DNA of 64,000 nucleotides, taken from positions 1-64,000 of IMG/VR virus record IMGVR_UViG_2600255093_000008. One strand, 5' to 3'. The notes below the pieces were generated by a model, which was not told the DNA's origin, did no database searches, and saw only the letters and a program-made list of their open reading frames with translations. Positions 34,003-63,702 of the stretch are shown here, one piece after another (the first letter of the stretch is position 1; every line of letters begins with the position of its first letter). Made by a program: the position numbers and the translations under genes. Source of the stretch: a virus (Duplodnaviria > Caudoviricetes).

Positions 34003-34054
34003 TCTAGATTTTTTCTAGATTCCGGTTGACATGGATCTAGATCGGGTATAGATT
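34003..34054 (+). promoter_or_regulatory. Sigma70 promoter (TTGACA-17-TAGATT) overlapped by three TCTAGA palindromes
   Basis: TCTAGA at 34003, 34014 and 34036; TTGACA at 34026; divergent from the RHH gene. Confidence 0.75.
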
Positions 34055-34096
34055 ACAAGTGTGACGCGAACGAGACACCTGACCTGGAGAGACGAG

Positions 34097-40575: not shown

Positions 40576-40591
40576 GACCGGCTAATGGCAC
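40576..40591 (-). promoter_or_regulatory. Prophage B late motif copy 1 (GTGCCATTAGCCGGTC)
   Basis: 14 nt upstream of ATG 40561, with a separate RBS in between. Confidence 0.75.
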
Positions 40592-40597
40592 GGCGTG

Positions 40598-40999
40598 TCA
40601 GTCCGGCAGCGTAGGTGTGACAGTCAACCAGGTTGCGGGCACGAGCTGAACTCGCCCCGCGATCCCGCCCGCGGCGACAACATCGACCGCGTAGCGACGG
40701 AACCCGGCGCCGGCCGGGACGGTGACACTGAAGGCCAGTGTGGTCGCGTCTGCTACCGCGCCGACGGCCGTGGCGCTCACGGGCCAGCCGTCGGCGCGCG
40801 GATCGGTCGCCTTGTACTGGTCAGATCCCGACCGGCCGTTGCGATCGGAGTCCCACAGTGGATCAGCGCGCACCGTCAGAGTGATGGTGCCGTAGTCCGT
40901 GAGCGACAGGCCCGAACGGAGCGTACATTCCACTCGCACGGTCTGTGTCTGGAGGGCCGGCCAGGAGAGCACCGGTGCTTCGCGGATCTGCGATGGCAT
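40598..40999 (-). CDS. BppU N-terminal-like virion protein
   Basis: GTITLTV...FSVTVP...YAVDV...QLV pattern. Confidence 0.5.
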   Translation of the reverse strand: MPSQIREAPVLSWPALQTQTVRVECTLRSGLSLTDYGTITLTVRADPLWDSDRNGRSGSDQYKATDPRADGWPVSATAVGAVADATTLAFSVTVPAGAGFRRYAVDVVAAGGIAGRVQLVPATWLTVTPTLPD

Positions 41000-41002
41000 G
41001 GC

Positions 41003-41608
41003 TCAGCACTCCAGGTCCGCCGTGAATGTCGTGACGCTGCGGTCGGCGCCGGTCAGGGTGACCACGGATCGATCGGCGCCCGTCATACAGACGGCGACGC
41101 CGTCCGTCGGCACAACGGGAACCACATACCGGGTCGGCCGCAGTAGAACGCTTGCCCGGGAGACGAACGGGCGCACGAACGCGCCCCGGGCCACGAGCAC
41201 GGGGAACTGCCGACGAGTTGCCGGAGCTGCACTGCGAGCTGGCACACGCAGCACCTGGCCGCGGACATGAACCGGTGCCGTGCGGAGCGCGCGAGCGACT
41301 AGGACGGCCGGGGGCCGTTTCGTCGGCGGAGCCACGATCGCTCGCGTGGGACGACCCACGATCGCTCGGCCGAGAACAGGCGCGATGCGCCGGGGCGCGG
41401 CCACGAGCACTGCGGGTGGACGCTTTGCAACGACCTGCGCCGCGGGCTTCGAGGGCCGGCCGACTGTCCCGCGGCCGACGAGCTGCCGGCGAACCTGTGC
41501 CACGACGATCGGGCGCACCGGGGGCCGCGCCGAAACGACGTTAGCCGCTCGCTGGGGCGAACCAACGAACGGCTTGCGGCGCCGGACTCCGGTGATGATC
41601 GTCGGCAC
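41003..41608 (-). CDS. Arg/Pro/Val-rich repetitive virion-region protein
   Basis: Repeated RPP-VLVA units; in-operon spacing. Confidence 0.55.
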   Translation of the reverse strand: MPTIITGVRRRKPFVGSPQRAANVVSARPPVRPIVVAQVRRQLVGRGTVGRPSKPAAQVVAKRPPAVLVAAPRRIAPVLGRAIVGRPTRAIVAPPTKRPPAVLVARALRTAPVHVRGQVLRVPARSAAPATRRQFPVLVARGAFVRPFVSRASVLLRPTRYVVPVVPTDGVAVCMTGADRSVVTLTGADRSVTTFTADLEC

Positions 41609-41610
41609 GA

Positions 41611-42069
41611 TTACTCTTCGTAGGTGACCTGCGCGGCCACGGTCGGCGTCCCCGTCGAGGTCGCTTCAATGTTCAGTGCCGCGCCGCCCGGGATACGGAT
41701 CTCCATACCGGGGGGGAGGAACTCGATAATCCCCGATTGGTCGGGAACCTCATACAAGAGGCCCGTGTCGGTCGGCGTGGTCGGCTCCACGGTCGCGTTG
41801 CTGCCCGCGGTCGCCTGCAACGTCTCAGAATCGGACGTGTCATTCTTGCCCGGCGTCGCCGCGGAGAACGTCCCGAAGTTCGCGGTCGATCGCGTCAGCC
41901 GGACCTTGACCGGCACGCCCGTCCCGCCGGCCGCCGCCTTGCCGAACAATCGGATACTCTTCACGAGAACCCGCTGATTCGCCGGCGCCTTGATTTGAAG
42001 GATCGTCTTCGCGGTGTTCGCCACGAGCGCGACCTCACCGCTGTTCACGTGCGCTACGATGCCGGCCAT
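41611..42069 (-). CDS. Virion-region hypothetical protein
   Basis: In-operon ORF. Confidence 0.6.
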   Translation of the reverse strand: MAGIVAHVNSGEVALVANTAKTILQIKAPANQRVLVKSIRLFGKAAAGGTGVPVKVRLTRSTANFGTFSAATPGKNDTSDSETLQATAGSNATVEPTTPTDTGLLYEVPDQSGIIEFLPPGMEIRIPGGAALNIEATSTGTPTVAAQVTYEE

Positions 42070-42071
42070 CG

Positions 42072-43268
42072 TTACCCCACAAGTTGCCAGGTGTTGGGCG
42101 TGAGTACCCGCGGCGGACCGCCCACCGTCCCGCCGCCGCTGTCCGCGTGTTGGAGCGCGCCCACGTCGCGATTGTTCGTGATCCCGGACGGGAACACGGC
42201 CGGGAAGCCCTTGCCCCGGAGCAGCGCCCCGCCTCCGGCCACGTTGTTCAAACTGAAGTCACGCGCGGCCCGGTTCACGAACGGGTCCGCGGTCAGGGTG
42301 AAATCCCCGAACCCGGCGCCCATGCCCGTGTATGCCCCCGACGTGTACGAGCCGTAAGCGTTGTTCCGCAGCACGCGCACTTGCGACATCACGTAAGTTT
42401 GGGTCAGCGCCGTGTTCTCGATCCCGTACCCGATCGCGTAGAAAATGCTGTTCTCGATTTCGAGCGCGATCGTGCTCGTGGTCGTCCCGGTCTTGATCGC
42501 GCTCCCGGTGATGTCCACCCATATCGAGTCCCGCGAGATGATCGTGACCGGGGTGGCGGCGCTGGTGTTCGCGTTGATCCCCGCCGCGAGTCCGTCAATG
42601 ATCGACTTCACCACCTCGAACGTGTACCCGATCCCGAACGACCCGCCGCGGGACAATTCCGAAGACGGGCAATCGTGGATGTCGCACCCGAACAGCTTAA
42701 TGAAGCCCCCGTTCGATCCCGGGAACAGGCTCGCCGTCGTGGTGCAGTTGAGCACCTCGCAGTTCTCCCAGACCCAGAACACGGACGCGATGTTCGCGTT
42801 AATGGGGGCGAGGCACCCGTCTACCACGACATCCCGGCACACCAACGGGGAACTGGCCGAGGTCGCCAGGCTGAACGCGCCGCCCTTCGTCGTGGGGTGC
42901 GTCTGCGTGAACCGCAAGTGCGTGAACTCGAAGAAGTCGTTGTCGTTGAGGGCGAACACGTTCCCGCCCGATTGCGAGCACGAGAACGTGGGGCGCCCGT
43001 CTCTTGCTCCGGGCGTCGTCGTGTACCCCTCGATCACGTTCACGCCGTTGGTCGTGTCCCCCTTGAGCGCGGCCGGGAACGTGACCGCGGACGCCTTGGC
43101 GTAGTCGGTCCCGGTGGCGCGCACCCAGATCCGGTTCCCGCCCCCGGTGATCGCGGCGAGCGCGGTGTCGAGGTCCGCGTAAGCCCCGGTCGAACCCGAT
43201 CCCGGGTTGTCCCCAGTGTTCGTGTTCAGCCCGAGCACGTTGTCCACGTATTTGTTCGCGTTCGCCAC
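42072..43268 (-). CDS. Beta-helix (pectin-lyase-like) tail spike/receptor-binding candidate
   Basis: Asn/Ser/Thr/Gly-rich beta-repeat character; DPFVN...DFSL...GGALLRG...DVGA C-terminus. Confidence 0.6.
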   Translation of the reverse strand: MANANKYVDNVLGLNTNTGDNPGSGSTGAYADLDTALAAITGGGNRIWVRATGTDYAKASAVTFPAALKGDTTNGVNVIEGYTTTPGARDGRPTFSCSQSGGNVFALNDNDFFEFTHLRFTQTHPTTKGGAFSLATSASSPLVCRDVVVDGCLAPINANIASVFWVWENCEVLNCTTTASLFPGSNGGFIKLFGCDIHDCPSSELSRGGSFGIGYTFEVVKSIIDGLAAGINANTSAATPVTIISRDSIWVDITGSAIKTGTTTSTIALEIENSIFYAIGYGIENTALTQTYVMSQVRVLRNNAYGSYTSGAYTGMGAGFGDFTLTADPFVNRAARDFSLNNVAGGGALLRGKGFPAVFPSGITNNRDVGALQHADSGGGTVGGPPRVLTPNTWQLVG

Positions 43269-43271
43269 GGT

Positions 43272-43649
43272 TCAGCCCACCGGGTTGGGACGGGGGTTGA
43301 CCGCGATCTTCCGGACCAGTGGCCCCAACTGGTCGTTCGCCGCGATCATCTGCCGGACCACCACGAGCACGCGCAGGAACGCGATCACGTCGTGGTTCGT
43401 GAGGAGACTTCGGGCGCCGGCGTCGCTCCCGGTGATGCCCTGCGCGGCCCCGAGCGCGGTGTAATCGCTCGCGTCCCACGGCTCGTCGCGGAGGAGTTCC
43501 GCGTCCGTGGTCCCGAGGGCCGCGGCAAGGCCCTGGCCAACGACCGCGTCAAGTGCCGCCGTCGGCACCGTGAGTACCCCGGCGAGCAGGTCCGCGGTCG
43601 CCCGCACCGTCTCATTGGTGAGCTTCAGAAGTACCGGGTTGTCGATCAT
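43272..43649 (-). CDS. Hypothetical virion-region protein
   Basis: ATG 43649 MIDNPVLLK. Confidence 0.55.
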   Translation of the reverse strand: MIDNPVLLKLTNETVRATADLLAGVLTVPTAALDAVVGQGLAAALGTTDAELLRDEPWDASDYTALGAAQGITGSDAGARSLLTNHDVIAFLRVLVVVRQMIAANDQLGPLVRKIAVNPRPNPVG

Positions 43650-43878
43650 TGCCCGTGCCCTCCACCTTCGCGACCTTCTGCCACCCGATCTTTTTTGCGA
43701 CGCGGAGGCACTCGACGTAGCTCGGGAACCGCACCCCGGCTTCGCGCTTGTATCTCTCGATCGCCGCGAGGAACTCTTCCTCGTCCGCGTCATACTCGCT
43801 TCCGGGGAACGTCCCCTCGTGGCTCACGAGCTGGGGGATCGCGCCCCCTTTCCGCTTCTTGGGGAGGAGCTTCCTCAT
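43612..43878 (-). CDS. Small conserved-looking protein (EFLAAIERYKREAGVRFPSYVECL)
   Basis: ATG directly after the late motif. Confidence 0.65.
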   Translation of the reverse strand: MRKLLPKKRKGGAIPQLVSHEGTFPGSEYDADEEEFLAAIERYKREAGVRFPSYVECLRVAKKIGWQKVAKVEGTGNDRQPGTSEAHQ

Positions 43879-43894
43879 GACCGGCCAATGGCAC
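43879..43894 (-). promoter_or_regulatory. Late motif copy 2 (GTGCCATTGGCCGGTC-ATG)
   Basis: Abuts ATG 43878. Confidence 0.8.
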
Positions 43895-43899
43895 GCGAC

Positions 43900-44496
43900 T
43901 CAGGCCGCCCACGGGCGAACCCGACAGATCACGTCCTCGCACCACACCGGCCCATCGGGGTACTGCGCGCACGTGGTCGCCGCGAAGTCGCAATCCCCGA
44001 CGTACCGCATCCCGTAGCGCCCGAGCTTCTCCGGGTCGTTGGGAAAGACCAGGCACGGGGTGCCGAGGTTTCCGACTCGCAACACGGGTTCACCCGGTCG
44101 CCAGATGAGCGGGGCCGTCGGGTGCCCGCTCATGCGGAAGATGTGAGGCCGGTCGGGTGCGAGTCGCAGGGCCGCGCGAGCCGTGGCGATCGCGTCCGGG
44201 GTGTACTCGTCGTCGTCGTCCAGGGCCATAACGTGCGTGCCGGTGGCCTGTCGGCTGTCGAGCACCCAGTTGCGCGCGTGGTGCCCCCACGTGCCCGTTG
44301 TGCCCGTGTGCTCGATGTATCGCCCGGGAAGGCCCATCTGTCCGAACAGTTCGGCCGCGATCGGCTGCGGTCCGTCGCCCACCAGGAGCACTTCGTCGCC
44401 CGGCTCCCACGCTTGAACGCGGAGCGAGCGCAGGGTGCGGGCCAGCGTGGGGCGGGAGATCGTTGCGATCACGAGCGAAAGCCGAACCTCAGCCAT
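43900..44496 (-). CDS. Glycosyltransferase family 2
   Basis: SLVIATISRPTLARTLRS, EVLLVGDG, HVMALDDDD, YVGDCDF. Confidence 0.88.
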   Translation of the reverse strand: MAEVRLSLVIATISRPTLARTLRSLRVQAWEPGDEVLLVGDGPQPIAAELFGQMGLPGRYIEHTGTTGTWGHHARNWVLDSRQATGTHVMALDDDDEYTPDAIATARAALRLAPDRPHIFRMSGHPTAPLIWRPGEPVLRVGNLGTPCLVFPNDPEKLGRYGMRYVGDCDFAATTCAQYPDGPVWCEDVICRVRPWAA

Positions 44497-45574
44497 GCTT
44501 GTACAGCCCCTTCGCGAAGTCGTCTTCCCAGCCCGCGCACGTGAAGTCGTCTGGTAGCGTCACCCCGAAGCGATTCGCGAACGTGCGGTAGTCGTCCACC
44601 GTGCTGGAGTGGTGCCACAGAAACGCGCCGGACTGCTCGCGCGCCACCGGTATCAGCTCCCACGGCCAATAAGCCCCGCCGAGGTGGTCGCGGATCAGTT
44701 CCGCAATCAGCATCTCGGCGTCGTACCCCTTCTCGCGCTCGAAGTAAAATGGGCGCGGCCGGTAGAACTCCAGAGCGCTCGGTTCGGTCCAGTCCGTGAC
44801 CCGCATGAGCACGATCTCGGTGCGGATCGGCCAGCGCGGGTTGTCACACGTCCGAGCCGCGGTCGCCAGGTCCGCCAGGGCTAGCGCCTTGGCCCCATCT
44901 TGGAGCCAATACCCGCCGGTTGGGATGAACCGCTGGGACAGCTTGCAGACGAATTCCAGCCCGCGTTCCTGCCCCCACTTGGCGCCCTTCCAGAATGCCG
45001 CGATGTCGCCTCCGCCGTGCCCAATGCGCTCCGGGTTCGTGCTCAGTTCCACGTTTGGATACCGGGCGCAGATGCGTTCCAGATCCGCGTGTATCCGCAG
45101 GTCGTCGTTGGAGATCAGCACCGGGACCGGGCCGCACGACTCGCGCACGGCCCGGATCTGCACCTCGGCGAGCGCGGCCCACTTGTACACGCCCACGACG
45201 ACCCCACACGCGGGGTCTCCGGCGCGGGGAATATTCGATGGAATAATTGCGGCCGCTTTTGCCCGGGGCGCGTCCGGGTGATGCTCGCACGTGGCGCACG
45301 TCCACAGCCCGGACAGCGGGTTCCCGCGCGTGCAGCGCCCGTCGGTGTTGTCCGGGTGATCGCAGTAGTACGTGCGCCGTGCCTCGTTCGGACCCGCGCA
45401 CGTGCTGCACTCGGCCACCAACTCGCCTTGCAAGGGGCACGGCGAGCGGAGCACGGGCAACGACACCCCCACCGCGCCGGCCCGGACCCGCCCCGCGTGC
45501 TCCGGGTACCGCTTGCTCACGCCCCGGGCCTTGCGGTCCGCGGTCCGCGCCTGGACCTCGTCGAACTTGGTCAC
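44489..45574 (-). CDS. Cys-rich N-terminal domain fused to a GT-A-like glycosyltransferase domain
   Basis: CSTC...YCDH...CATC; VVVGVY...VLISNDD. Confidence 0.6.
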   Translation of the reverse strand: MTKFDEVQARTADRKARGVSKRYPEHAGRVRAGAVGVSLPVLRSPCPLQGELVAECSTCAGPNEARRTYYCDHPDNTDGRCTRGNPLSGLWTCATCEHHPDAPRAKAAAIIPSNIPRAGDPACGVVVGVYKWAALAEVQIRAVRESCGPVPVLISNDDLRIHADLERICARYPNVELSTNPERIGHGGGDIAAFWKGAKWGQERGLEFVCKLSQRFIPTGGYWLQDGAKALALADLATAARTCDNPRWPIRTEIVLMRVTDWTEPSALEFYRPRPFYFEREKGYDAEMLIAELIRDHLGGAYWPWELIPVAREQSGAFLWHHSSTVDDYRTFANRFGVTLPDDFTCAGWEDDFAKGLYKHG

Positions 45575-46821
45575 GGGATGTCCTCCGGGCACAATTGCTC
45601 CTCGTTGAAGCAGTTGCAGATCCCCGTGAACCACGACGGCTCACCCGTGAGCGGCCCGTCCACCGTCGCCGTGAACTCGATGTAAATGATCCGGTTCACC
45701 AGGAAGTCAAAAGGCGGTATCGAGATACACGTGCGGGGGCTGTTGAACACGAACTGTGTCATTCCCGTGCAGCCCTTCGACGGGCCGTACCAGACGTTCA
45801 CGATCCCGGTCCCGTTGATCGTCAGGCAGTTCGTCACGCTCGGCGGGGAACTGCTGGCGATCCGATCGTACACGTGCCAGGCCACGTCCCCGGCCTTCAT
45901 GTCCGAGGGGAGTGCCCAGCTCGTGCAGCACGGGAGCCCCATGTTCGGGGGGCACGCGCTACAGTGCTCCTCGGCCTCCTCCTCGCTCTCCCACGGCCCG
46001 CCCGATTGCACGTCTAGCTCGCCCGAGCACGCTTCACCCACTTCCAGTTCCAGGGGGGTGTACGGCGTCCCCGGGTCCGAGTTCTTCGGGCGCGTGCAGT
46101 ACCATCCGGCCGGGCAGCTCGCGCACACCTTCACGTACAGCACCCGCGAGCACACGTCGTCCGGGTCGTCCACGAAGTCCGGGTAAAAGACCTTGCGGCG
46201 GAACGCGAACGTGACGCACGGGCACACCGAGCAGTCCTTGCGGCCAACGATATCGACCGCTGACGGCAGCCCCGAATTGAGTTTGAGCGACGGGACGGCC
46301 GGATCGAACGTGATCGTATACGCGACACCGTTGATCGTGATTCCCTGATGGATCTCGACCGCCGGTGCGGTGCCCCCGACTTCTTGAATCGTCCAGTAAT
46401 CGTCCGGCAGAGCGGCCACAAGCCAGCCGTCGCCGTTGCAATCGAGGCCGCTACCACCAGAACCGTCACGGTACTCGAACGCCAGCCCCGGAGCTGAACG
46501 GAGCGGCCTGAGCCACACTTTTGCGGTGCCATCGGTCGGTACGTCGGTGCGGCCGGTTACCTCGTAGGCCGCGAGCAGCGTCCCGTCGCCCACTTCAGGT
46601 GCGCCGTCCAGCTCGGGGAACGTGGTCGGATCGCCGTCGTCCAGGCGGGCGAACCCGTAAGCGTTTCCGGTTGCGTGCGAGGTGATGACGGCCCAAAAAC
46701 CGCGCGGGCTCCAATCTTCGATGGTCAGCGCGGTCAGGCCGTTATCGGGCGGCCGCCCGGAGACCGCAAGATTTCCGGAACCAGTCACAGATTCGGCGGG
46801 TGAGCTTCGCACCGGGTACAT
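45571..46821 (-). CDS. Cys-rich tail tip/host-specificity protein
   Basis: AYEVTGRTDVPTDGTAKVWL; about 19 Cys; ATG directly after the late motif. Confidence 0.6.
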   Translation of the reverse strand: MYPVRSSPAESVTGSGNLAVSGRPPDNGLTALTIEDWSPRGFWAVITSHATGNAYGFARLDDGDPTTFPELDGAPEVGDGTLLAAYEVTGRTDVPTDGTAKVWLRPLRSAPGLAFEYRDGSGGSGLDCNGDGWLVAALPDDYWTIQEVGGTAPAVEIHQGITINGVAYTITFDPAVPSLKLNSGLPSAVDIVGRKDCSVCPCVTFAFRRKVFYPDFVDDPDDVCSRVLYVKVCASCPAGWYCTRPKNSDPGTPYTPLELEVGEACSGELDVQSGGPWESEEEAEEHCSACPPNMGLPCCTSWALPSDMKAGDVAWHVYDRIASSSPPSVTNCLTINGTGIVNVWYGPSKGCTGMTQFVFNSPRTCISIPPFDFLVNRIIYIEFTATVDGPLTGEPSWFTGICNCFNEEQLCPEDIP

Positions 46822-46837
46822 GACCGGCAAATGGCAC
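46822..46837 (-). promoter_or_regulatory. Late motif copy 3 (GTGCCATTTGCCGGTC-ATG)
   Basis: Abuts ATG 46821. Confidence 0.8.
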
Positions 46838-46927
46838 CGGCTTTAGCCGCTGTGAACTCGCGCCCACTTTTCCAGCGCCCGTACACGCGGGTACCTTTAG
46901 TACCCTGGCTTAAAAGTGTAACGGCGC

Positions 46928-47536
46928 GTGAGTAATCGAGTTATGGACGTCGAACGGTTGCCCTTCAGGTGCCCGACGTGTCGTGAAACGCTCCTCGCTC
47001 CTGTGACTTTGGCGGGCGTCACACAGTCCTGCCCAAAGTGTCACCAGGTGGTCACATGGGAGGCTCCACCAGCACAGACGGGCCGAATCGCACGCCAACA
47101 ATCGCGTAACGTGGCCTTTGCTGCACTGGTAATTGTCACTATCGGCGTCCTCATGTTCCTGAAGGGCGGTCAGGAGCTAGATCGATTGCAGCAGCCGTCT
47201 GTAAATGCGATCGATGCCGATTGGAGGGCGTACAGAAACGAGGAGGCCGGGCTGCTTCGCAAGGTTACCTGGGGTGTGATTCTTGTCGCTGTCGGATGTG
47301 GTCTTTACTACTTTGTGGTTCCCGCCACGAGACTCAGAGAATCGCTTGAGTCGCTTCAGCCTGTGACCGGTCGCTCCAAAGAGGAGATCGCTGGCGTACT
47401 CGGTGCCCCTGGTGAGGTGGAGAGATCGACCGATGGGAGCGTCACCCGCGAAACCTGGCGAACACTCAGGTTCCGATTCACACTCGAATTCCACCAGGGC
47501 GTGTGCGCCGGACTTGTCCACACGCGAGAGGACTAG
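46928..47536 (+). CDS. Opposite-strand moron: Zn-ribbon + 2 TM + SmpA/BamE-like C-terminal domain
   Basis: FRCPTC...SCPKC, two TM segments, GRSKEEIAGVLGAP. Confidence 0.65.
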   Translation: MSNRVMDVERLPFRCPTCRETLLAPVTLAGVTQSCPKCHQVVTWEAPPAQTGRIARQQSRNVAFAALVIVTIGVLMFLKGGQELDRLQQPSVNAIDADWRAYRNEEAGLLRKVTWGVILVAVGCGLYYFVVPATRLRESLESLQPVTGRSKEEIAGVLGAPGEVERSTDGSVTRETWRTLRFRFTLEFHQGVCAGLVHTRED

Positions 47537-48520
47537 CTACGAGTTCCCGGGCTTGAACAGATCATCGAAAGGCGTGAGGGCGTAGGGCGTGGTGTCTGTT
47601 GTCACGTTGCGACGGTAGACGCGCCCGTACTTGCGGCCGGCATTAGGAGCGCCCACGGCTGGGTCGCGGTCGCGCTTTTCGTAACCGTTCCATCCGAACT
47701 TTCCAGGGCGATAGTCGAATACGAGCGTCGTATCAAAATAAAAATTCCCGTCGGCCCCCTGATACCAGGCAATCGGCTCCGCCGGTCCCTTGAACAACAG
47801 GGACTCTTTCTCAAAACTAAAGCCGCCCTTCTGCAACTGGAACATTCCGTGGTTCACGGTGAGGAGTTGTGAAGCCCATCGCTGCTCGGGTATTGCATCT
47901 ACGGGCCACTGGTGGAGTTTCAACAGGAACTCGACGGTGTAGTCTGGGGAGAATGCGGTTTCGTCAGGCACTATCGCGCGATCGGCCGCGGGCTGCCCTT
48001 CGCCCAGGGCCGAGGTGTCGTAAGTGAACCCATAACTGCTAATCCTCTTCTCGCGCGGACGGTACCTTCTTTGGAGAGAGGTGTACCGGTTCTTCTCGAT
48101 CCCATCGTAACTATTGGTCAAAGTGTCATCGCCGCGCACCCAGTACGGAGGGCGCGTGAATACCAATTCATAGATACACCAATCGCACTCAAACACGTTT
48201 TCATTAAACGGATCATGCGTAACCTCTCGTTTATCGTAACAACCGAAATCCACGATCCGGTAGCTCTCGCAGTACAAGGTCTCGTTAAACGGGCATTGAT
48301 GAGGAACCACCCGGTTAAGGATCGGCGATGTTCCATCCCATTCCGTGTACCCGACGATATCGCGGAGGAAGTCGTTGGAGTCGCTCCACGACACAAGGGC
48401 CTGCATCACCTCTTGGTTCGCGTCACGTGCGCCGCGGCCACTGTAACCGTCCATGAGCCACTGGAACGGGACGCCGGACGAGGTCTGCGCGGTGATGGTT
48501 GCTCGATCGGGACGGGCCAC
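47537..48520 (-). CDS. Tail protein downstream of TMP
   Basis: Position; homologous in motif order to the <1-876 ORF. Confidence 0.7.
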   Translation of the reverse strand: MARPDRATITAQTSSGVPFQWLMDGYSGRGARDANQEVMQALVSWSDSNDFLRDIVGYTEWDGTSPILNRVVPHQCPFNETLYCESYRIVDFGCYDKREVTHDPFNENVFECDWCIYELVFTRPPYWVRGDDTLTNSYDGIEKNRYTSLQRRYRPREKRISSYGFTYDTSALGEGQPAADRAIVPDETAFSPDYTVEFLLKLHQWPVDAIPEQRWASQLLTVNHGMFQLQKGGFSFEKESLLFKGPAEPIAWYQGADGNFYFDTTLVFDYRPGKFGWNGYEKRDRDPAVGAPNAGRKYGRVYRRNVTTDTTPYALTPFDDLFKPGNS

Positions 48521-48523
48521 GTG

Positions 48524-50970: not shown

Positions 50971-50982
50971 TCGCGCTCTCTG

Positions 50983-51399: not shown

Positions 51400-51403
51400 T
51401 TGG

Positions 51404-53012: not shown

Positions 53013-53015
53013 GGA

Positions 53016-53240: not shown

Positions 53241-53288
53241 ACTCACCTTTCGCGGCCTGGAGCCTGATCGGAACACCACTTCGCGAGT

Positions 53289-53612: not shown

Positions 53613-53685
53613 TTCGATGTTCGGGATAGCCCCGTGACTTGTGACCGGTCACGGGGCGATTTATATATCAAATATTCAAACAATT

Positions 53686-55083: not shown

Positions 55084-55154
55084 TACGGACCTCGTGTGTG
55101 CGGTGATCTCTCGAAGGAACCCGGGGCCAACTCTGGCCCCGGGCGGAATGCGGG

Positions 55155-55664: not shown

Positions 55665-55712
55665 CGCATTGTCCTCGGTACGGTGGTTGTCGGTGGCCGA
55701 TCCCGCGCGGGG

Positions 55713-56813
55713 TTACGAGTCCCAGGTGATGCGCCCGGGCGCGGCCCCGGTTGTCGTTTTGGACTCTTTGGTCTGCTGCCCTTTGTCTCGCGGTGTGCTG
55801 ATCGGCGTTTCGGCCCCACCGCCCGCAGACAGTCGCTTGTACGATTCGGCGATGACCTTGCGGCGATCGGGTTTAGCCGCGGCGATCGCTTCGAGATCGT
55901 CGGTGGAGTAGCCGGTGAACCCGACCGCCTTGCAAACGGCAATTGCTTCGAGGATCGCGGCGCCGTCCCGGGCCTTCTGCTTGCCTTCGGGTGTGGCTGG
56001 ATCTCCGTCGTCGTCCACCTTGTCGGGTTTGGTTGCGTCGGCAACCGCGTCGCCGTGGCTGTTGAGCAGGTTCTTGATCTTGGCGAGCGCGTCTTTGGGT
56101 TCCATGTCGCCGCTGAGGGCGTTGTCAATAACGGCCATGAGCGCAGTCTTGAACCCGGCGCTGATCGCCGCGTTGACGTCGTCGCTCTCGCCCGGCCCTG
56201 CGTCCATGTCCGTGGCGACGTCGGCCATGCCGTCCATCTCGGACAGGGCCTTGATCTTGAGCACCTGCTTCGTGGTGCTCTTGGGGTGTTTCGCGATCGA
56301 CTCGGCCAGTTGCTTGATTGTCAGCGGCACTTTTCGGCCCTCAAAGAGTCCCTTGGTAGTGGCCGGTTGTGCCACCAGATCGATTGATTCCACTTCGCGG
56401 ATCGCCTCAACTACCTCACGCCCGCCCGGTCCGCGGCGCGTATCGCACATTGCGACGTGCGAGAATCCGAACAGGGCGGGATTCTTCTCCGCGGCCTCCA
56501 TCACCCGCTCGTACATGGGGTGTTTGGTGAGGCAGTGGAGCGTGCCGCGGGGCTTGCCGTCGGCGTCGATCTTTACCCCTTTGAACCAGCCGAACACGCG
56601 GTCGACCGTGGCGTCACGGCCGTGATCGCAGTTGACGGGTTTCCCCTCGTACTTGCCAAAGTCGCGCTTGAACACGCTCACCGGGTAATCGCGCCCGTTG
56701 GCGCTGACCGTCCCGCAGATGAGCACGCCGCTGATAGTGCCCGCTTCCCGGTCGACTTTGGCGCCGGTGAAAGGTGCCGCAACGCGCTCGGTGATGCGTA
56801 CTGCGATCGTCAT
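55713..56813 (-). CDS. Prohead protease/scaffold
   Basis: SANGRDYP, VNCDH, FGFSH, ESIDLVAQPATTKGLFE. Confidence 0.85.
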   Translation of the reverse strand: MTIAVRITERVAAPFTGAKVDREAGTISGVLICGTVSANGRDYPVSVFKRDFGKYEGKPVNCDHGRDATVDRVFGWFKGVKIDADGKPRGTLHCLTKHPMYERVMEAAEKNPALFGFSHVAMCDTRRGPGGREVVEAIREVESIDLVAQPATTKGLFEGRKVPLTIKQLAESIAKHPKSTTKQVLKIKALSEMDGMADVATDMDAGPGESDDVNAAISAGFKTALMAVIDNALSGDMEPKDALAKIKNLLNSHGDAVADATKPDKVDDDGDPATPEGKQKARDGAAILEAIAVCKAVGFTGYSTDDLEAIAAAKPDRRKVIAESYKRLSAGGGAETPISTPRDKGQQTKESKTTTGAAPGRITWDS

Positions 56814-56829
56814 GACCGGCCAATGGCAC
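56814..56829 (-). promoter_or_regulatory. Late motif copy 4 (GTGCCATTGGCCGGTC-ATG)
   Basis: Abuts ATG 56813. Confidence 0.8.
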
Positions 56830-56833
56830 GGGG

Positions 56834-57199
56834 CTATTTCCGAGCAGGCTCCACAGCAAAGGCGAACCGTCCGAAGATGTGTGGGAACATCTCACGAGCG
56901 ATCACCAGCCCGGCATCCGTTGTGTGCTCGCCTTCGAGTACGAACGCGCTGTTACTATTCCCCCGGCTGTCTCCGCTGCGATCCCAGAACGCGAGCACGG
57001 TCCATCCGTTGATGACCGATCGGTGAACGGCGCCCTGCACCTGGTCGCCGTCTTGAGGCAGTAGATGGCTGTCCAGGATGTGCAGAGCGAACGGCAGAGA
57101 ACGCTCTGCGTCGCGACCAGCGAAACGACCACTGCGCGTGTGCAGATGGTGCCCCGCTTGACCCGCGTTCCACACACCGAAGTAGTACACCTGCATCAC
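56834..57199 (-). CDS. Hypothetical protein between portal and protease
   Basis: YYFGVW...GHHL...WTVLAFWDRSGDSRGNSNSAF; AAGGGGA RBS. Confidence 0.65.
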   Translation of the reverse strand: MMQVYYFGVWNAGQAGHHLHTRSGRFAGRDAERSLPFALHILDSHLLPQDGDQVQGAVHRSVINGWTVLAFWDRSGDSRGNSNSAFVLEGEHTTDAGLVIAREMFPHIFGRFAFAVEPARK

Positions 57200-60057
57200 G
57201 ACATCCCCTTGACCAGTTCCCGGAGCCGCTGTTCAACCGTCGCCGCGTCGGGTGCGGCACGCTCGACGCTAAGCTGCTCGTTAAGGTGGGTGAACAGTTC
57301 GGCGATCATCGCGGCCCACACACCGAACCCGTCGTCGGTGTCCACCGCTTCACCGCGGACCTTGTGAGCGGCCCAATACGCGGCCTTGACGATCACCTTT
57401 GAGGCAATCGACGCGACGAGGTGCCCAGAGATGCCGAACCCGAGCGCATCGTTGAGATTCGAGGACACCGCGTCGGCAGTCTTCGGGTTGGCCGTTCCGG
57501 AGCTGAGGTTCGGGTTGTAGCCGAGCAGCTTCATGTCGCCCGGGGTATCCAGAATCGCACCGAGTATCCCACCGATGCGTTCGGCCGCGGGACTCAGGCG
57601 AATCGACCACTCGTAGGCTTTCACGGCCGCGGTCAGGGCCAGATCCTTGACGCGCGCGACGGTGCCAGCGGGCGGGCGCTTGTCGGCTGGCAGTGCCGCA
57701 ATGTCCTTGTCGATGCCTGCGGTGATGGACGCGCGGTCGTCGTCGTGCAACTCGTGGGCGCGGTCGGGTGCGGCGGCGTCGGACGGACCGTTACCTTTAA
57801 CGCGGCGCTGGTACGTGGTCCCGTTCGACAAATGGACGTCGATTATCCGATCTTCCCAGACAATCGCCTTGATCGGTGCCGATTCCTTTTTCGCCGGCGC
57901 GACCTGACCCTTCACGAGCACCTTGCCGTCGGGCAACACGACCGGCGGGCGAACGACAACGCCCGTATCGCCGGGGAACATCCCCGCGGGTGCGTAGTAC
58001 AGTGCGCCGGAATGTTTGACCGGCTCGCCCTTCTTCGGCCCGGTCGTCGCGGCGCCGGTGATCGGCAACACACGCTCGATGGCCGCTTGAGCCTCGACGT
58101 GGCCGAGGTCGTGAGCGTGCATCCATACCGACGCGAGTTCTTGCGCCAAGTCCCGAGCGTCGCCGTCGGTCGCGTTGAAGAGCGCGGATTCGAGGTAGTC
58201 TTTCGCCACCGGGTCCGTGGCCTGAGAAATGGCCGCTTTGGTCGCGCTGAAGGGGTCCGATTCGGTCGACTGGTCGGGCGCCTTAGCGACCTGTTTGCCG
58301 TCAACGTAATGCCGCTCGCGCCCCTTCGCGTCCTTGATGGTGCCCGTGAAACCTTCTTTCAGAATGGCTTCACCGAAGATTCCCCCGTCATCCGGAGACG
58401 TGCCGTCACCGCCCGCACTGCCCGGGGGTGTGGGCGTGGGATCTTTCGGACCGGCCGTCGGCGCTGGTACCGGTGCGGGAAGTCCGCCCATCTCTGTCAG
58501 CTTCTTCTTGTGGCTGGCAAGGTTCGCGAGCAGCACTTTTGGATCGTCGCCGGCAGCGCTCATCCACTTGTAGGGATCGGCCACACCCTTATCGAGTAGC
58601 GCGAGGAAGGTACGAGCCTTCTTTTCTTCGTCGGCGATCACAACCGGCTTCGAGGTCAGCACGGGCTTCACCCGCCGCCACGTGCCCTGTGGCAGCCGGC
58701 CCGATTCCTCGCACAGCAGAATCACGCGCTCGATAACGGACCGCGTGAACCCTTGCTGCTTCTTCTGGCGACCTTCGATGATGCGGACGAAGGGGGAGCC
58801 GGACACGAGGCTCGACGCGAACGAGTCGGCCTCTCCGGAGAAGGAAGACGGCAGGCCGAAGCGGAAGCTGATGCTCCGCATGATGGCCTGCTCGACCTGG
58901 ACGAACCCGTTGGGTTGCGACGTCGGCCCCACCTGGACGTTGCGCCCGGCTTCGGTGCGGATGATCGAGCCGGCGTCGTAATTCTTCACATCCACGCGCG
59001 CAGCATTTGAGCCTTGCCCCGGTCCACCGAGCCGCAGGCCCTGATAGTCGCGGTTCGTTTCGATATGCCGGCGGAGATTGTCTTCGGTCGTGTTGGCGTA
59101 CTCTTCCCACCACGCAATTGCCGCTTGCAGTCGAGCCACGTGGCCCATGTTTTCGAGCAGGCCCGCTACCTTGCGCACCAGCTCAGCGACCGGCCGGAAG
59201 TCGCTCATGCCGCGTTTCACGACGCGGTCAACGTTATGCTTCGTGCGCACGAACCGGTTCGCCGGGATCACGCGCCCGCCGTCGCGGTCCGGGTGGGCCA
59301 CGTAGATCGCCGGCACTGTCTCGGCGTCGTGGGGCTTGGTGAGCGCGCCCCACTTCCAGTCTTCGAGGCTGGCCCAATCAAAGTCGCGCGGCACCTCATC
59401 CGGTGTGCGGATTAGCTCAGGCTCAACGTGACGGCACACGGGCACTTCGCCCCGACCGCCGCGGAAAAACTCGAGAGTCGCTTCCCCTTCAAGGATGCTG
59501 CGCCCGATGCACTCCTCTTCCCGGTCCGTCTCGCCCTGGCCCCAGTCGTTGACCTCGCACCACTCGTCCCATGCCTCTTGTACAGTGCGGACGAGCGGGT
59601 CAACGTCCGTCTGACCGTCGCCGTCGGCATCGACCGGGCCGGACGCGGTGGAGCCGGGCGCCTGGCCGCGCAACACGAACTGTACGGACACGGGACCGAT
59701 GAACGCCTTGACGTGATCCCTGAACCCGATCAGCAGGTGATTTCGCTGCGCCATCTCGCGCACGAGCGACAGGTGCAGGCGCCATTCCTCTTCGGTCAGG
59801 TACGGCAGCGCCGCGTGCGTGCGGTCGTCGGCCCGGTCCGCGGGATAGCCCCCACCGAACCCACCGAGGTAACCGAACGTGCCGTCATAGAATCGGTCGA
59901 ATCGCCAGGAGACGGCGTCGAGTGCAGCAATCTGCTCGCGGACCCGGCCTTCCGCGAGCGCGAGTTGCCGACGAAGTGTGGTCAGACCCTCTGGTTCCGA
60001 TGAACCAGAGGTTGCGGGGAGTGCTTCGGATGTGGTCAGCGTGATGGCCGGATACAT
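57196..60057 (-). CDS. Portal protein with long C-terminal extension (953 aa)
   Basis: RHVEPELI, KHNVDRVVKRGMSDF, RFGLP..FSGEADSFAS; position after terL. Confidence 0.8.
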   Translation of the reverse strand: MYPAITLTTSEALPATSGSSEPEGLTTLRRQLALAEGRVREQIAALDAVSWRFDRFYDGTFGYLGGFGGGYPADRADDRTHAALPYLTEEEWRLHLSLVREMAQRNHLLIGFRDHVKAFIGPVSVQFVLRGQAPGSTASGPVDADGDGQTDVDPLVRTVQEAWDEWCEVNDWGQGETDREEECIGRSILEGEATLEFFRGGRGEVPVCRHVEPELIRTPDEVPRDFDWASLEDWKWGALTKPHDAETVPAIYVAHPDRDGGRVIPANRFVRTKHNVDRVVKRGMSDFRPVAELVRKVAGLLENMGHVARLQAAIAWWEEYANTTEDNLRRHIETNRDYQGLRLGGPGQGSNAARVDVKNYDAGSIIRTEAGRNVQVGPTSQPNGFVQVEQAIMRSISFRFGLPSSFSGEADSFASSLVSGSPFVRIIEGRQKKQQGFTRSVIERVILLCEESGRLPQGTWRRVKPVLTSKPVVIADEEKKARTFLALLDKGVADPYKWMSAAGDDPKVLLANLASHKKKLTEMGGLPAPVPAPTAGPKDPTPTPPGSAGGDGTSPDDGGIFGEAILKEGFTGTIKDAKGRERHYVDGKQVAKAPDQSTESDPFSATKAAISQATDPVAKDYLESALFNATDGDARDLAQELASVWMHAHDLGHVEAQAAIERVLPITGAATTGPKKGEPVKHSGALYYAPAGMFPGDTGVVVRPPVVLPDGKVLVKGQVAPAKKESAPIKAIVWEDRIIDVHLSNGTTYQRRVKGNGPSDAAAPDRAHELHDDDRASITAGIDKDIAALPADKRPPAGTVARVKDLALTAAVKAYEWSIRLSPAAERIGGILGAILDTPGDMKLLGYNPNLSSGTANPKTADAVSSNLNDALGFGISGHLVASIASKVIVKAAYWAAHKVRGEAVDTDDGFGVWAAMIAELFTHLNEQLSVERAAPDAATVEQRLRELVKGMS

Positions 60058-60073
60058 GACCGGCCAATGGCAC
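60058..60073 (-). promoter_or_regulatory. Late motif copy 5 (GTGCCATTGGCCGGTC-ATG)
   Basis: Abuts ATG 60057. Confidence 0.8.
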
Positions 60074-60076
60074 CGG

Positions 60077-60481
60077 CTACACCTGGTGCGTGCCTTCGAC
60101 GCCACGTGCGAGTCGATCCTTCGTGCGTTGCTGCAAAGACGCACGCGCGGACCGCAGTGAGCTGAGCGCGTCTGCGTTGTACGGATGCGCGAACGGGCCG
60201 TTCTGGAAACCCTCCAGTCGGTCGATCAGGATCGTGAGCAACACTTCGTGCGTCAGCCCGTTAGTTCCGACTTCGGGGATCGGGCCGTTTTGGAACAGGA
60301 TCGTCGAATGTTGAGCGGGCTGACCATGACGCGCCGTCCACGGATCGGACGGATTAGTTCCGCTATTGAATCCTTCGACCTGGTAGAGGTGCGGCGCGCC
60401 GCCCTTGCCCGGCTCGTCGAGCACAGTGATAGTGAGATGGTCGTTGCAACCGTTTACCTTGTGGCCGTTCAACTCGCGCAT
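60077..60481 (-). CDS. tad1: Tad1-family anti-defence sponge protein
   Basis: DEPGKGGAPHLY, ILFQNGP, NGLTHEVLLTILIDRLEGFQNGPF, NADAL, QRTKDRLARGVEGT match the Tad1 motif order as I recall it. Confidence 0.8.
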   Translation of the reverse strand: MRELNGHKVNGCNDHLTITVLDEPGKGGAPHLYQVEGFNSGTNPSDPWTARHGQPAQHSTILFQNGPIPEVGTNGLTHEVLLTILIDRLEGFQNGPFAHPYNADALSSLRSARASLQQRTKDRLARGVEGTHQV

Positions 60482-60511
60482 TGGGCACTCCGTTAGGAAA
60501 TCGAAAGAGAC

Positions 60512-60527
60512 GAACGGCCAATGGCAC
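60512..60527 (-). promoter_or_regulatory. Late motif copy 6 (GTGCCATTGGCCGTTC)
   Basis: 30 nt upstream of the tad1 ATG, with a GGAG RBS between. Confidence 0.75.
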
Positions 60528-60531
60528 TGAC

Positions 60532-61221
60532 TTAGCGCGAGGCTTTAGCTCGTCGGGCTTTGACAACCGGAGTAGTGTCTACGGTCTGACTGCAAACCCA
60601 TTCGCCGGCCGCGTAGGTCTGGCACGACTTACACTTTCTGCACGCCTGGAATCGTCCGCGTACTGACTTCAGGGACCATTCCTCACACCACCAACAGAGA
60701 TCGTGAAGGGCCTGTTCTTTGGTCTGCCGGATCACGTCGGCCTTACTGTCCCATTCGAGCGGGTGCAGCATCCTGCCCGTGTGCCCGGCCGCGACCTGGA
60801 GTGCGTCAAATGCGGCTTGGTATCGACCTGCGTTGTGCCAGAAGTCATCGGTGCGGATGTAGCCGGAGTAGAGATCCTCGTCGCGTTCCAGGTAATTGAT
60901 GGCTGTCGTGAGCCACAGCAAGGCTTGCGGGTTGTCGGATGAGCCGATGCCGTTCTCCGGTCGCCAAGTGCGGAAGTTCTGTTTGGCCGACACTTCGAGG
61001 TAATTGATCGTGAAGCCGAGCGCGCGGAACTTCTCCTTAAGCGCGGTACGGGCGTTCGCCGCGGCCTTCTCGTGCATGGAGACTTGCGGGTGAACGATAG
61101 TGAGCGCGCGAATGCCGTGCGGGTGGTGAGTGGTCCCGTCGCGATGCTCGGTCGCGATGCGATGCAGAACCAACGTCGAATCGAGACCGCCGGACCAGCA
61201 GAGCAAAGACATAAAACGCAA
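60532..61221 (-). CDS. queC: QueC-like PP-loop ATPase (7-cyano-7-deazaguanine synthase family)
   Basis: WSGGLDST, KADVI, C-terminal CWWC...CRKCKSC. Confidence 0.8.
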   Translation of the reverse strand: MRFMSLLCWSGGLDSTLVLHRIATEHRDGTTHHPHGIRALTIVHPQVSMHEKAAANARTALKEKFRALGFTINYLEVSAKQNFRTWRPENGIGSSDNPQALLWLTTAINYLERDEDLYSGYIRTDDFWHNAGRYQAAFDALQVAAGHTGRMLHPLEWDSKADVIRQTKEQALHDLCWWCEEWSLKSVRGRFQACRKCKSCQTYAAGEWVCSQTVDTTPVVKARRAKASR

Positions 61222-61277
61222 TCTCCAAAGGGATCGTGCCAGGATGCGCAGTCGGAACAGAATGTCATCGCCGGCCT

Positions 61278-61466
61278 CTATCGATCAACGCCGTGCTTCG
61301 TTTCGCGCGTGTCTTCCTTTTCATCAGCCGACCGATGCCGCTGAGTCGGCACGTAAGCCAAGTACCCGGACGACCGCAGTTCGTTCAGGACCACTTTGCG
61401 GCAATGCTTGCAGAATCGCTCGTGAGCCTCCGCAGGGAATGCCTTGCAACGTTCGCAGGTCTTCAT
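61278..61466 (-). CDS. Small Zn-finger protein
   Basis: CERC...CKHC. Confidence 0.55.
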   Translation of the reverse strand: MKTCERCKAFPAEAHERFCKHCRKVVLNELRSSGYLAYVPTQRHRSADEKEDTRETKHGVDR

Positions 61467-62995
61467 GTCAACAGTTCCTCCAACCGAATGACGGCCGTCG
61501 CCAGCGCATCAGGGCCGTCGTCGTGATCGCCGTGGGGGAAGTCGCGGAGTTGATTCGCGAGTAGCTGCCCGCCCGCAGTGTTGCGGACACGGATCTGGCC
61601 GAGGCGGATGTAGTCGTTGAGCGCGCGAATGCGCACGATCTTCGGGTCCGAGACGCTCTTCTCGTAGTAGATCAACGACACAGGCCGGCCCTGCTTGAGC
61701 CGGTCTTGCTTCACACGCTCGGCAGCCGGCCCGAAGAGGCCCATCGTGTTGTTGACTTCCGCGACCAACTCCTTCGGCTGCCAGCTCGCCGCGATGTCGA
61801 TGGCCCGTTCGACCCACTCAGGCTCGCGCCTCAACTCGCAGTCAACGAACAGCGTGCCGTACCGGGACAGGCCGAGCATGATGTGGGCCTGGTAGTCGGA
61901 CTTCTCGCTCGTGCCCTTCGAGGGGTCCAGGGACTGGATCTTGAACACGATGTCGTCGGGCCACTGATTGAAGAAGAAGTCAGCGCGGTCGAAGCACTCC
62001 GACGGCCATTCCACGCCTTCGATCGACCCGGGCACGCCCTGGAATTCGGACTCGAACGCGGACGCGCCCACTTCGGCCCGCTTCAGCATGATGTCGAGCA
62101 AGCTGAATCGCTGGGGCCAGTAGAGCACCGCGCCCTCGTCCATCGCAGCTTTGTTCCGCTCGTAGAACGCACGCGCCGTTGTGTCGCGGTTGTCGTCGGC
62201 GAGGTTCGTCGCAAGCCTCTCGAACTCGTCCCACAGGTCCATTCGCTTCGGCCAGGAGTGGACGGCCTTGTACGTGTGCCCGGACCAGCCGGCGAGTTTG
62301 CCGAGACGGACCGCAACGGCCTCACGGTGGATGGCGGAGCCGACGGCGAGGAAGTTCGTGTGCTCATCGCCGGCGTTCATCACCTCGCGCGTGGCCCATC
62401 GCCAAGCGTGGTCGCGTTCGATCGGCGAGATAACGTCTTTGTTCGATTGAATGTCGTCGAAAATGATGAGTGACGGTCGGGCTGATCGGTTGCGGCGCCC
62501 GCGCACCTTTTTGCCGCGGCCGAGGGCCTCGATAATCGACCCGTTGCGGAGTTGGATTCGCGACGTCTTCCATTCCGGCCCGACGCCCGCTGCGTCCGAG
62601 TACACCGTGCGAATCAGGTCGTTGTCTTCGAGCTCCTTCCTGATGTGCCCTAAGTGCTGGTCGGCCTGGTCGCTGCTGTCCGACAGAATGAGCGTGTACT
62701 TCTCCCAACCCTCCAGGGCGGCACGGAGCGGGTAGGCGAGCGTCTTCCAGGTGCTTTTCGCTCCACCCCGCGGCGCGATGTCGGAGATCTTCACCGATCT
62801 CCGCTTGTGGAGTTGGTGCAGCTCGGTGTCGAACTGGCGGTGAAAGTCCGCCTGGCTGCCGCGGAAGTAGTGCGGCAGGTACGTGCGGTTCCAATCCGTC
62901 GGCGATAACTCACGCGCCATCAGCCGTTCCCCGGCCGCCCAAATGCGGCGGAGCGAAGAGGGGGCGAAGGGCAGTGAGGAGAGCTGCGAGTTCAT
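61463..62995 (-). CDS. terL: Terminase large subunit
   Basis: APRGGAKST, IIFDDIQ, QSLDPS, HDDGPDA. Confidence 0.93.
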   Translation of the reverse strand: MNSQLSSLPFAPSSLRRIWAAGERLMARELSPTDWNRTYLPHYFRGSQADFHRQFDTELHQLHKRRSVKISDIAPRGGAKSTWKTLAYPLRAALEGWEKYTLILSDSSDQADQHLGHIRKELEDNDLIRTVYSDAAGVGPEWKTSRIQLRNGSIIEALGRGKKVRGRRNRSARPSLIIFDDIQSNKDVISPIERDHAWRWATREVMNAGDEHTNFLAVGSAIHREAVAVRLGKLAGWSGHTYKAVHSWPKRMDLWDEFERLATNLADDNRDTTARAFYERNKAAMDEGAVLYWPQRFSLLDIMLKRAEVGASAFESEFQGVPGSIEGVEWPSECFDRADFFFNQWPDDIVFKIQSLDPSKGTSEKSDYQAHIMLGLSRYGTLFVDCELRREPEWVERAIDIAASWQPKELVAEVNNTMGLFGPAAERVKQDRLKQGRPVSLIYYEKSVSDPKIVRIRALNDYIRLGQIRVRNTAGGQLLANQLRDFPHGDHDDGPDALATAVIRLEELLT

Positions 62996-63686
62996 CGGGG
63001 GCCATCTTGGTCAGGTCCGGCAGGTCGCCGTCTTTGATCTTCACCACGTCCTCGAACATGCCGAGGTGCCGCGCGACGTTGACCAGTGCGGCGTGTTGGT
63101 CGTTGAGTTTGGCTTCGATTCCCTCTTTGGTTTGCTTCACGCCGGCGTAGAGGCACTTCGCCGCGGCAGACAGCAACCGAGTGTCTTTGATGTGGGTTCG
63201 GCCTTCGCCCTCACCGAAGCACTCGGAGCAGTCCGGGTGAGGCGGCTTCCTCGCGTCGTAACCGTCGCCCCCCATTGTGGCGAACGTGCCGGGGTGCGGT
63301 TCCTTCGAGTTGGCCTGGTGCGCACGGACCAGCACATCGTGCGCGGCCCGATCCCGCTCCAACTCCCCCTGCGTGCGCTGGTACCGGTTCCCGCGACCGT
63401 GGCAGTACCGGCAGCACGTCCGCCGGTACTCCACGATCTCGTTCGCATCGGCCGTCGCGATCGACCAGAACCGCTGTAGGACCGCGTCCGCACTGATCTC
63501 CGTGCTTTTACTGCGTTTCGCAATCGCCGCATCGATCGCCGCTTTTACGTCAACAAAAGTCAACAACCGCTGACCGATCTGCTTCGCCGTCTTTGCCGAA
63601 TACCCTGCCCGAATAGCGGCTTGCGTTGCGTTCAGATCGATCAGGTATTCAGCGACGAAACGCTGTTGCTTGGGTGTAAGAGCCAT
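62910..63686 (-). CDS. terS: Terminase small subunit with Zn-binding insertion
   Basis: LTPKQQRFVAEYLIDLNATQAAIRAGYS; CCRYC...CSEC. Confidence 0.93.
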   Translation of the reverse strand: MALTPKQQRFVAEYLIDLNATQAAIRAGYSAKTAKQIGQRLLTFVDVKAAIDAAIAKRSKSTEISADAVLQRFWSIATADANEIVEYRRTCCRYCHGRGNRYQRTQGELERDRAAHDVLVRAHQANSKEPHPGTFATMGGDGYDARKPPHPDCSECFGEGEGRTHIKDTRLLSAAAKCLYAGVKQTKEGIEAKLNDQHAALVNVARHLGMFEDVVKIKDGDLPDLTKMAPDELAALLTALRPLFAPPHLGGRGTADGA

Positions 63687-63702
63687 GCCCGGCAAATGGC
63701 AC
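63687..63702 (-). promoter_or_regulatory. Late motif copy 7 (GTGCCATTTGCCGGGC-ATG)
   Basis: Abuts terS ATG 63686. Confidence 0.8.

Follow-up and report, generated by a model that had tools for sequence, protein, structure and literature searches.

A 16-bp repeat at gene starts of Gemmata prophages is a candidate single-box promoter for leaderless late mRNAs

The window analyzed here, a stretch of 64,000 nucleotides from the virus record IMGVR_UViG_2600255093_000008, corresponds to C6:3-64002 of a 9.27-Mb assembly with 64% G+C. The host was placed in Gemmata, a planctomycete, by its 16S gene and its closest protein relatives. We examined a 16-bp motif, GTGCCATTNGCCGKKC, which recurs at gene starts of a prophage in this window and which had been proposed to be a phage-specific promoter consisting of a single -10 box. 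The prophage genes that bear it are encoded on the minus strand. First comes an early block (SNF2 helicase, DNA methylase, MazG and primase-polymerase), followed by terS, terL, a QueC-like gene, a gene of 134 amino acids (aa) that belongs to phrog_2428, a family of unknown function, and then by the portal gene, the head and tail genes and a module in lysis position. The motif-bearing operon ends at a strong intrinsic-terminator-like hairpin on the minus strand (37193-37220; 12 pairs, 11 of them G-C, with a T-rich tail). One integrase is found at window-equivalent 81157-82296 and a second at 31390-32589. The terS and portal labels of the original prediction, and terL as well, were upheld by Pfam and PHROGs; its labels 'protease', 'tail tip' and 'tad1' were not, the genes in question having no Pfam or PHROG match, or a match to phrog_2428 alone.

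Exact matches to GTGCCATTNGCCGKKC were found seven times in the window, only on the minus strand, which is the gene strand, and at each of the seven predicted positions. None occurred in 100 dinucleotide-preserving shuffles of the window. The entire 9.27-Mb genome held no other exact copy, so that there is no crowd of host copies of the kind that might have spoken against a phage-specific element, and even a relaxed core followed by ATG was almost confined to two prophages within this genome. Five of the seven copies directly abut an ATG, without a Shine-Dalgarno site, as had been noted from the letters alone. The copy furthest upstream, GTGCCATTTGCCGGGC (63687-63702), abuts the ATG of terS at 63686, and its first base is overlapped by the TAG stop of the preceding open reading frame (ORF), which encodes a ParB-like, helix-turn-helix (HTH) protein. 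The portal gene (60057-57196) begins directly at GTGCCATTGGCCGGTC (60058-60073), a position that is also filled in the prophages G149, G130a, G130b, G213 and G221. The third abutting copy (56814-56829) precedes a 366-aa head-module gene (56813-55713) whose orthologues in G000_C2, G203, G183, G130a and G221b carry the motif as well. After a gap of about 700 bases, GTGCCATTTGCCGGTC (46822-46837) abuts the ATG of a 416-aa gene (46821-45571), and the last abutting copy (43879-43894) that of an 88-aa gene (43878-43612), the G183 orthologue of which likewise has a copy. The remaining two copies precede leaders with a ribosome-binding site, again as predicted: GTGCCATTGGCCGTTC (60512-60527) is followed by a 30-nucleotide leader with GGAG and by the ATG of the phrog_2428 gene at 60481, and GTGCCATTAGCCGGTC (40576-40591) by the leader ATCACCCCAGAGGGATGACC, with GAGGGA, and the GTG at 40555 of a gene for a signal-peptide-like protein, the first of the lysis-position module. 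Upstream of every copy in the window, the stop codon of the preceding gene lies 0-6 bases away; the intergenic gap thus only just holds the motif. An eighth copy, GTGCCATTGGCCGATT, with two mismatches, lies outside the window at window-equivalent 69100-69115 on the minus strand, 5.4 kb upstream of terS, where it heads the primase/replication block. The regulon, which had been described as late, does include the packaging, head, tail and lysis genes; because of this eighth copy its scope is better described as middle plus late. Several scans of the same region were negative: Rfam gave no match in the window, terminator-like sites were not enriched and none preceded a motif copy, no sigma70-type promoter found by consensus scan coincided with any copy, and among about 45 prophage ORFs we found neither a phage RNA polymerase nor a sigma factor detectable by Pfam.

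Relatives of the prophage were found by a terL search within the genus (46-70% identity), including a second prophage on contig C2 of the same genome, and 60-120 kb around nine related prophages were taken for motif comparison. As the original prediction would have it, the same motif recurred there at gene starts on the gene strand. The family consensus is (G)TG[C/A]CAT[C/T]NG[C/T]CGG[G/T]C. On the gene strand the nine regions held 43 good copies, as against a single weak match, not associated with a start, on the other strand. The stretch that holds all the prophage copies begins a few kb before terS and extends to the lysis end. Twenty-four of the 43 abut an ATG, three stand one base away from it and 16 precede a leader, at 16-45 bases from the start codon. 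For the 27 copies that abut or are one base off, the start codon was always ATG and a Shine-Dalgarno site was never present; 11 of the 16 leaders had a Shine-Dalgarno core (GGAG, GAGG or AGGA) within 40 bases. The base directly 3' of the motif was a purine in 38 of the 43 copies (A 31, G 7, C 4, T 1). Across the aligned copies, information content was close to zero between -65 and -20, with high values between -16 and -1. There is consequently no -35 box, which agrees with what had been seen in the seven copies of the window. Wider terL searches, of GTDB genomes and IMG/VR, returned only distant relatives (at most 45% identity), without the motif. The motif is restricted to a single family of Gemmata prophages.

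Two prophages in which the motif has diverged were informative as to which part of it is kept. In G218, whose terL is 52% identical, and in G206, GTGACATC alone is conserved. The 3' half has diverged, yet CAT still stands 9 bases from the ATG, and the copies that do not abut a start are again followed by leaders with Shine-Dalgarno sites. Conservation of only GTGACATC and of the 9-base spacing is the behaviour of a positional promoter element. The prophages are otherwise highly mosaic, with only terL, the portal gene and the 366-aa gene common to all that bear the motif; orthologous positions (the portal gene, the 366-aa head gene and sometimes terS) are filled in several of them while the flanks differ. 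Such mosaicism, and the location of copies at the heads of modules, might suggest that the motif is a module-boundary linker which aids recombination between prophages and has no direct role in expression. We consider this very improbable indeed, since 16 bases are short for homologous exchange, the drift of the 3' half at retained spacing is at odds with it, and it would leave the strand bias, the exact abutment to ATG and the split in Shine-Dalgarno use unexplained.

The lack of Shine-Dalgarno sites at abutting copies has to be judged against the practice of the host. In 4,248 long ORFs of the genome with high G+C at third codon positions (GC3), Shine-Dalgarno cores peaked 5-9 bases before the putative start and were present in about 40% of the long ORFs; their absence at abutting copies is therefore meaningful. 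The motif might in principle replace them, as an element of the mRNA that brings ribosomes, or a factor of the phage, to the neighbouring AUG within a polycistronic RNA. A precedent for phage-specific repeats at gene starts is provided by the start-associated sequences (SAS) of Cluster K mycobacteriophages (PMC3203893), which resemble the Gemmata motif in being short, asymmetric and cluster-specific, in lying in one orientation next to starts with a strong preference for ATG, in being absent from the host genome and conserved across mosaic relatives, and in having no known function. The constant ATG and the missing Shine-Dalgarno site at the 27 starts that the motif meets would also fit an element of this type. 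In contrast to the Gemmata motif, however, SAS contain an AGGAG Shine-Dalgarno core, precede the start by 3-7 bp and are associated with non-structural genes (PMC3203893); the Gemmata motif has no GGAG or AGGA, abuts the ATG or, in three cases, is one base off, and marks replication, structural and lysis genes. Moreover, the 16 leadered copies are too far from the start for the motif to place a ribosome there, and most of them have an ordinary Shine-Dalgarno site; the host has no such start-adjacent element; and pairing of the motif with 16S rRNA was no better than that of shuffled motifs, the 16S gene being only partly assembled. A role in translation initiation is accordingly quite improbable. 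The 16S gene itself merits a remark. The assembly has a single one (G000:C2:240985-241967, L011), which spans 983 bases against a 1533-position model and is therefore collapsed or internally deleted; its 3' end bears the usual CCUCC anti-Shine-Dalgarno sequence.

The host set also gave a reference for promoter position. The hexamer TANNNT peaked sharply at an offset of exactly 6 bases upstream of the start codon, with 61 cases as compared with about 20 at neighbouring offsets, and the start was ATG in 50 of these 61. This suggests, from sequence, that the host genome has a class of leaderless genes with a -10 hexamer at -12 to -7. With the A of ATG taken as +1, the phage motif has CAT at -12 to -10 and TG at -15/-14, and so stands in the same register as host TANNNT, a register established computationally. 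Both have A at -11, and in both +1 coincides with the first base of the start codon. The phage box differs from the host promoters in having G rather than T at -7 and nine further conserved bases, and in not being found upstream of host genes; TG[AC]CAT gave no comparable peak before these. Established promoter classes did not fit. The extended -10 element of sigma70 (TGnTAnnnT) is matched by TG at -15/-14 and by A at -11, and is contradicted by C at -12 and by G at -7 in 42 of the 43 copies. As for the -24/-12 element of sigma54 (TGGCAC-N5-TTGC), TGGCAC is seen only when GTGCCA is read from the opposite strand, in which orientation it faces away from the genes, there is no TTGC at N5, and the GTGACA variants destroy TGGCAC.

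From these observations we infer that the motif acts at the level of DNA, as a phage-specific promoter with a single box, in the manner of the late promoters of phage T4 that are read by gp55, that it yields leaderless mRNAs, and that its reader is a sigma-like protein of the phage; we give this explanation a probability of about 65%. The 5' half, (G)TG[C/A]CAT[C/T], would lie at about -16 to -9, so that TG and CAT take the register of an extended -10 element, and the G+C-rich 3' half would serve as the discriminator. Transcription would start at the base directly 3' of the motif. An mRNA that starts in this way on the A of an ATG would be leaderless and need no Shine-Dalgarno site, and where a leader follows, the leader would usually supply one. 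The reader is most likely the protein encoded at 33140-33712, which appears to keep only the domain that reads the -10 region and opens the promoter, and which would bind the host core RNA polymerase; that no -35 element exists would follow from such a reader being limited to region 2. The copies would then mark off jointly activated units among the genes for replication, packaging, head, tail and lysis. A single-box promoter accounts for the absence of a -35 region and the tight packing against upstream genes, for ATG-only starts without Shine-Dalgarno sites at abutting copies and Shine-Dalgarno sites in most leaders, and for two further traits, the excess of purines directly 3' of the motif and a 3' half that keeps its spacing while its sequence changes. 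All the in-silico checks that had been proposed for the -10-only, leaderless promoter favoured it, and the prediction is supported by the register shared with host TANNNT and by the Shine-Dalgarno sites of most leadered copies.

A DNA site need not be a promoter, and we also considered a binding site for a repressor, either of the 'stoperator' type known from phage L5, which blocks elongation, or for the ParB-like/HTH protein, whose ORF is encoded nearby (63702-64589). The stoperators of L5 and of further phages in Cluster A are numerous asymmetric 13-bp sites that fall in short gaps between genes and share one orientation with respect to transcription. The Gemmata copies share this asymmetry, single orientation and placement, and they are phage-specific with slight variants from phage to phage. 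Stoperators, however, occur in both genome arms and have a consensus in common with the operator at the early lytic promoter; the Gemmata motif is limited to middle and late genes, with none in the early/regulatory part at 70-82 kb. Copies are lacking from the regulator/integrase end (79-82 kb) and from most of the early region, where the main operator would be expected. Furthermore, a repressor site explains neither the abutting ATG without a Shine-Dalgarno site nor the survival of the 5' half and its spacing in G218 and G206, and no homologue of the ParB-like ORF exists in the other prophages that bear the motif. We regard such a site as distinctly unlikely.

The candidate reader of the motif is the product of the gene at 33140-33712 (plus strand, 190 aa), which is convergent with the late operon. 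An AlphaFold model (AF2, from an alignment of the six members of the family, all from Gemmata) showed a confident three-helix core, resembling sigma region 2, at residues 29-111; the remainder was disordered except for a terminal helix, and the C-terminal 75 residues were of low confidence, with no HTH. The earlier suggestion that this gene is sigma-like is supported by the model, which appears to have a region-2 fold and has no region 4. The top Foldseek match was SigB of S. aureus, a weak one (E 0.22). In a VIA fold search, 17 of the top 50 chains were sigma region-2 domains, with Z scores of 5.7-7.6 over about 64-90 aligned residues and a root-mean-square deviation mostly near 3 Å (2.7-6.3 Å). 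They included sigma70 (1sig_A, Z 7.6) and T4 gp55 (7d7d_F, Z 6.7), as well as sigma32, SigE, WhiG, sigma28, RpoS, SigB and ECF sigmas such as SigC, SigH, SigJ and SigL. Z scores in this range are common for helical bundles, and the argument lies in the enrichment for one family. In addition, hhalign comparison with 30 region-2 segments of host sigma factors placed regions 2.1-2.2 in register (P = 0.005). On these grounds a sigma-like fold is probable. Homologues occupy the same place, a few kb past the lysis module on the opposite strand, in G000_C2, G203, G183, G221b and G218. A strain of Gemmata obscuriglobus has a homologue, GobsT_09790. The protein is present in 10 of the 29 genomes of the genus, and the strict motif followed by ATG was found in 7 of these 10 and in none of the 19 others; of the remaining three protein-bearing genomes (G206, G218 and G212), the first two were examined further, and both carry motif variants. 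Since motif and protein are part of a single prophage lineage, in genomes that are themselves related, their co-occurrence is supporting evidence and not proof.

The gene is also relevant to a further alternative, in which an endoribonuclease, of host or phage origin, cleaves the long late transcript directly 3' of the motif, so that leaderless or short-leader 5' ends arise. RNA processing would produce the same split in Shine-Dalgarno use and the same fixed distance to ATG, and since upstream genes end 0-6 bases before the motif without a terminator, read-through RNA must contain it. Yet no conserved or stable RNA structure was found around the copies (z -1.6 to +1.1), a single-stranded recognition site of 16 bases is unusual for a nuclease, and no nuclease candidate travels with the motif, whereas the sigma-like gene does. 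The register is that of host leaderless promoters, and the bias towards purines directly after the motif is in keeping with initiation. On balance we consider a cleavage site unlikely.

Several points nonetheless weigh against a promoter read by the sigma-like protein, the first being that a cleavage site would give rise to an identical sequence pattern. Position -7 is G, and -10 reading by the sigma70 family normally needs a T there; a G+C-rich discriminator, furthermore, should melt poorly. The sigma assignment relies on Z scores of 6-8, which are moderate for a fold match and frequently attained by small helical bundles, and on a weak profile match to host sigmas, and searches of Pfam, PHROGs and PDB sequence profiles with the family gave no match. 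The co-occurrence of motif and protein would be expected anyway for two features of one lineage. Finally, the G130a and G130b prophages have the motif and lack the sigma-like gene. G130b instead encodes an ECF-like sigma upstream of terS (L115:15761-17062, minus strand; Pfam Sigma70_r2, E 1e-5), which also has an HTH-like stretch at its C terminus. G130 has a single homologue of the sigma-like gene, located in an element, G130c (G130:C1:1130001-1250000; L134-L139), that shares no structural genes with these prophages and contains five GTGCCATCAG boxes, followed by long leaders, several of them with the hairpin CTGTAACGGGGGTTACA. It is conceivable, if doubtful, that the motif and a sigma without region 4 form a self-contained, orthogonal switch that makes late mRNAs leaderless by design, and that G130a and G130b have kept the promoters, lost the sigma and rely on that of G130c in trans. 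Were this so, it would amount to promoter-level piracy or cross-activation among co-resident phages.

A close known parallel to a promoter of the kind proposed is found in phage T4, whose late promoters consist of a box of 8 bp that precedes the start by about one helical turn, have no -35 element and are read by gp55, the smallest member of the sigma family (PMC2988020). The two systems are alike in having a single box without -35 conservation and many copies through the late genes, the position of the Gemmata box relative to the start site being deduced from its abutment to ATG. They would also be alike in their reader, a small, highly diverged sigma restricted to region 2, gp55 itself being among the fold matches of the 33140-33712 protein; no sequence homology between the two proteins is detectable. 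In contrast, the T4 box is an A+T-rich TATA followed by an A+T-rich melting segment, whereas that of the Gemmata phages is GTGMCATY followed by a G+C-rich segment. T4 further requires gp33 and the sliding clamp gp45; no clamp gene was apparent among the annotated ORFs, although no search was aimed at counterparts. Lastly, T4 is virulent and its late mRNAs have leaders, whereas the Gemmata phages are temperate and most of their units would be leaderless.

Our literature searches found no published work on promoters, transcription start sites or leaderless mRNAs of planctomycetes, nor on gene control in planctomycete phages or the regulation of Gemmata prophages. If the proposed reading is true, the phylum would have, to judge by those searches, its first predicted pair of phage promoter and sigma. 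It would be the temperate-phage counterpart, rich in G+C, of the T4 gp55 system, and its late transcription units would for the most part be leaderless. The motif can serve as an annotation rule for start codons and operon heads in Gemmata prophages, and together with the sigma-like protein it suggests a compact orthogonal promoter/sigma pair for Gemmata genetics.

A number of further observations were made in the course of the motif comparison. The second prophage of the genome, also mosaic, lies at about 490000-540000 of G000:C2; its terL is 69% identical, its motif variants include TGACATCCGCCGGGC and TGCCATCGGTCGGGC, and it carries its own copy of the sigma-like gene (56% identical); cross-activation between the two resident prophages is possible. 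In the G221 prophage, identical motifs and gene starts, GTGCCATCGGCCGGTC ATGAGCGCTCCC..., occur 2.9 kb apart at G221:C1:6792505 and 6795441 (L141/L142), which points to a recent segmental duplication within that prophage. A palindrome, TCGCCCGCGCGGGCGA, occurs about 21 times in the 60 kb of G218:C3:3058001-3118000 (loci L130, L123 and L124) and looks like a REP-like (repetitive extragenic palindromic) or terminator-like repeat. The loose pattern GTGCCATTNGCCGNNC, which had matches in 122 of 201 family genomes (loci L012-L041), was rejected, since read on the other strand it is the G-K-W-H coding motif of sulfatases; motif scans in planctomycetes can be misled by it.

Three features of the window itself may be added. 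The ParB-like/HTH ORF directly upstream of terS (L007:1516-2403, minus strand) was so named from an N-terminal likeness to ParB seen by eye; it gave a weak HTH match and no Pfam hit to the ParB family. On the plus strand, a near-consensus sigma70-type promoter at 34026-34061 (TTGACA, 17 bases, TAGATT) ends 6 bases short of the GTG that opens the ORF at 34061-34282, in the block that also holds the sigma-like gene; promoter and GTG together would be an arrangement of the host leaderless type. Within the structural genes, a G+C-rich hairpin of 11 pairs (53629-53657) lies just 3' of the stop of a large ORF (55083-53686), which is in capsid position and has a Shine-Dalgarno site; the hairpin is possibly an attenuator or an element of RNA stability.

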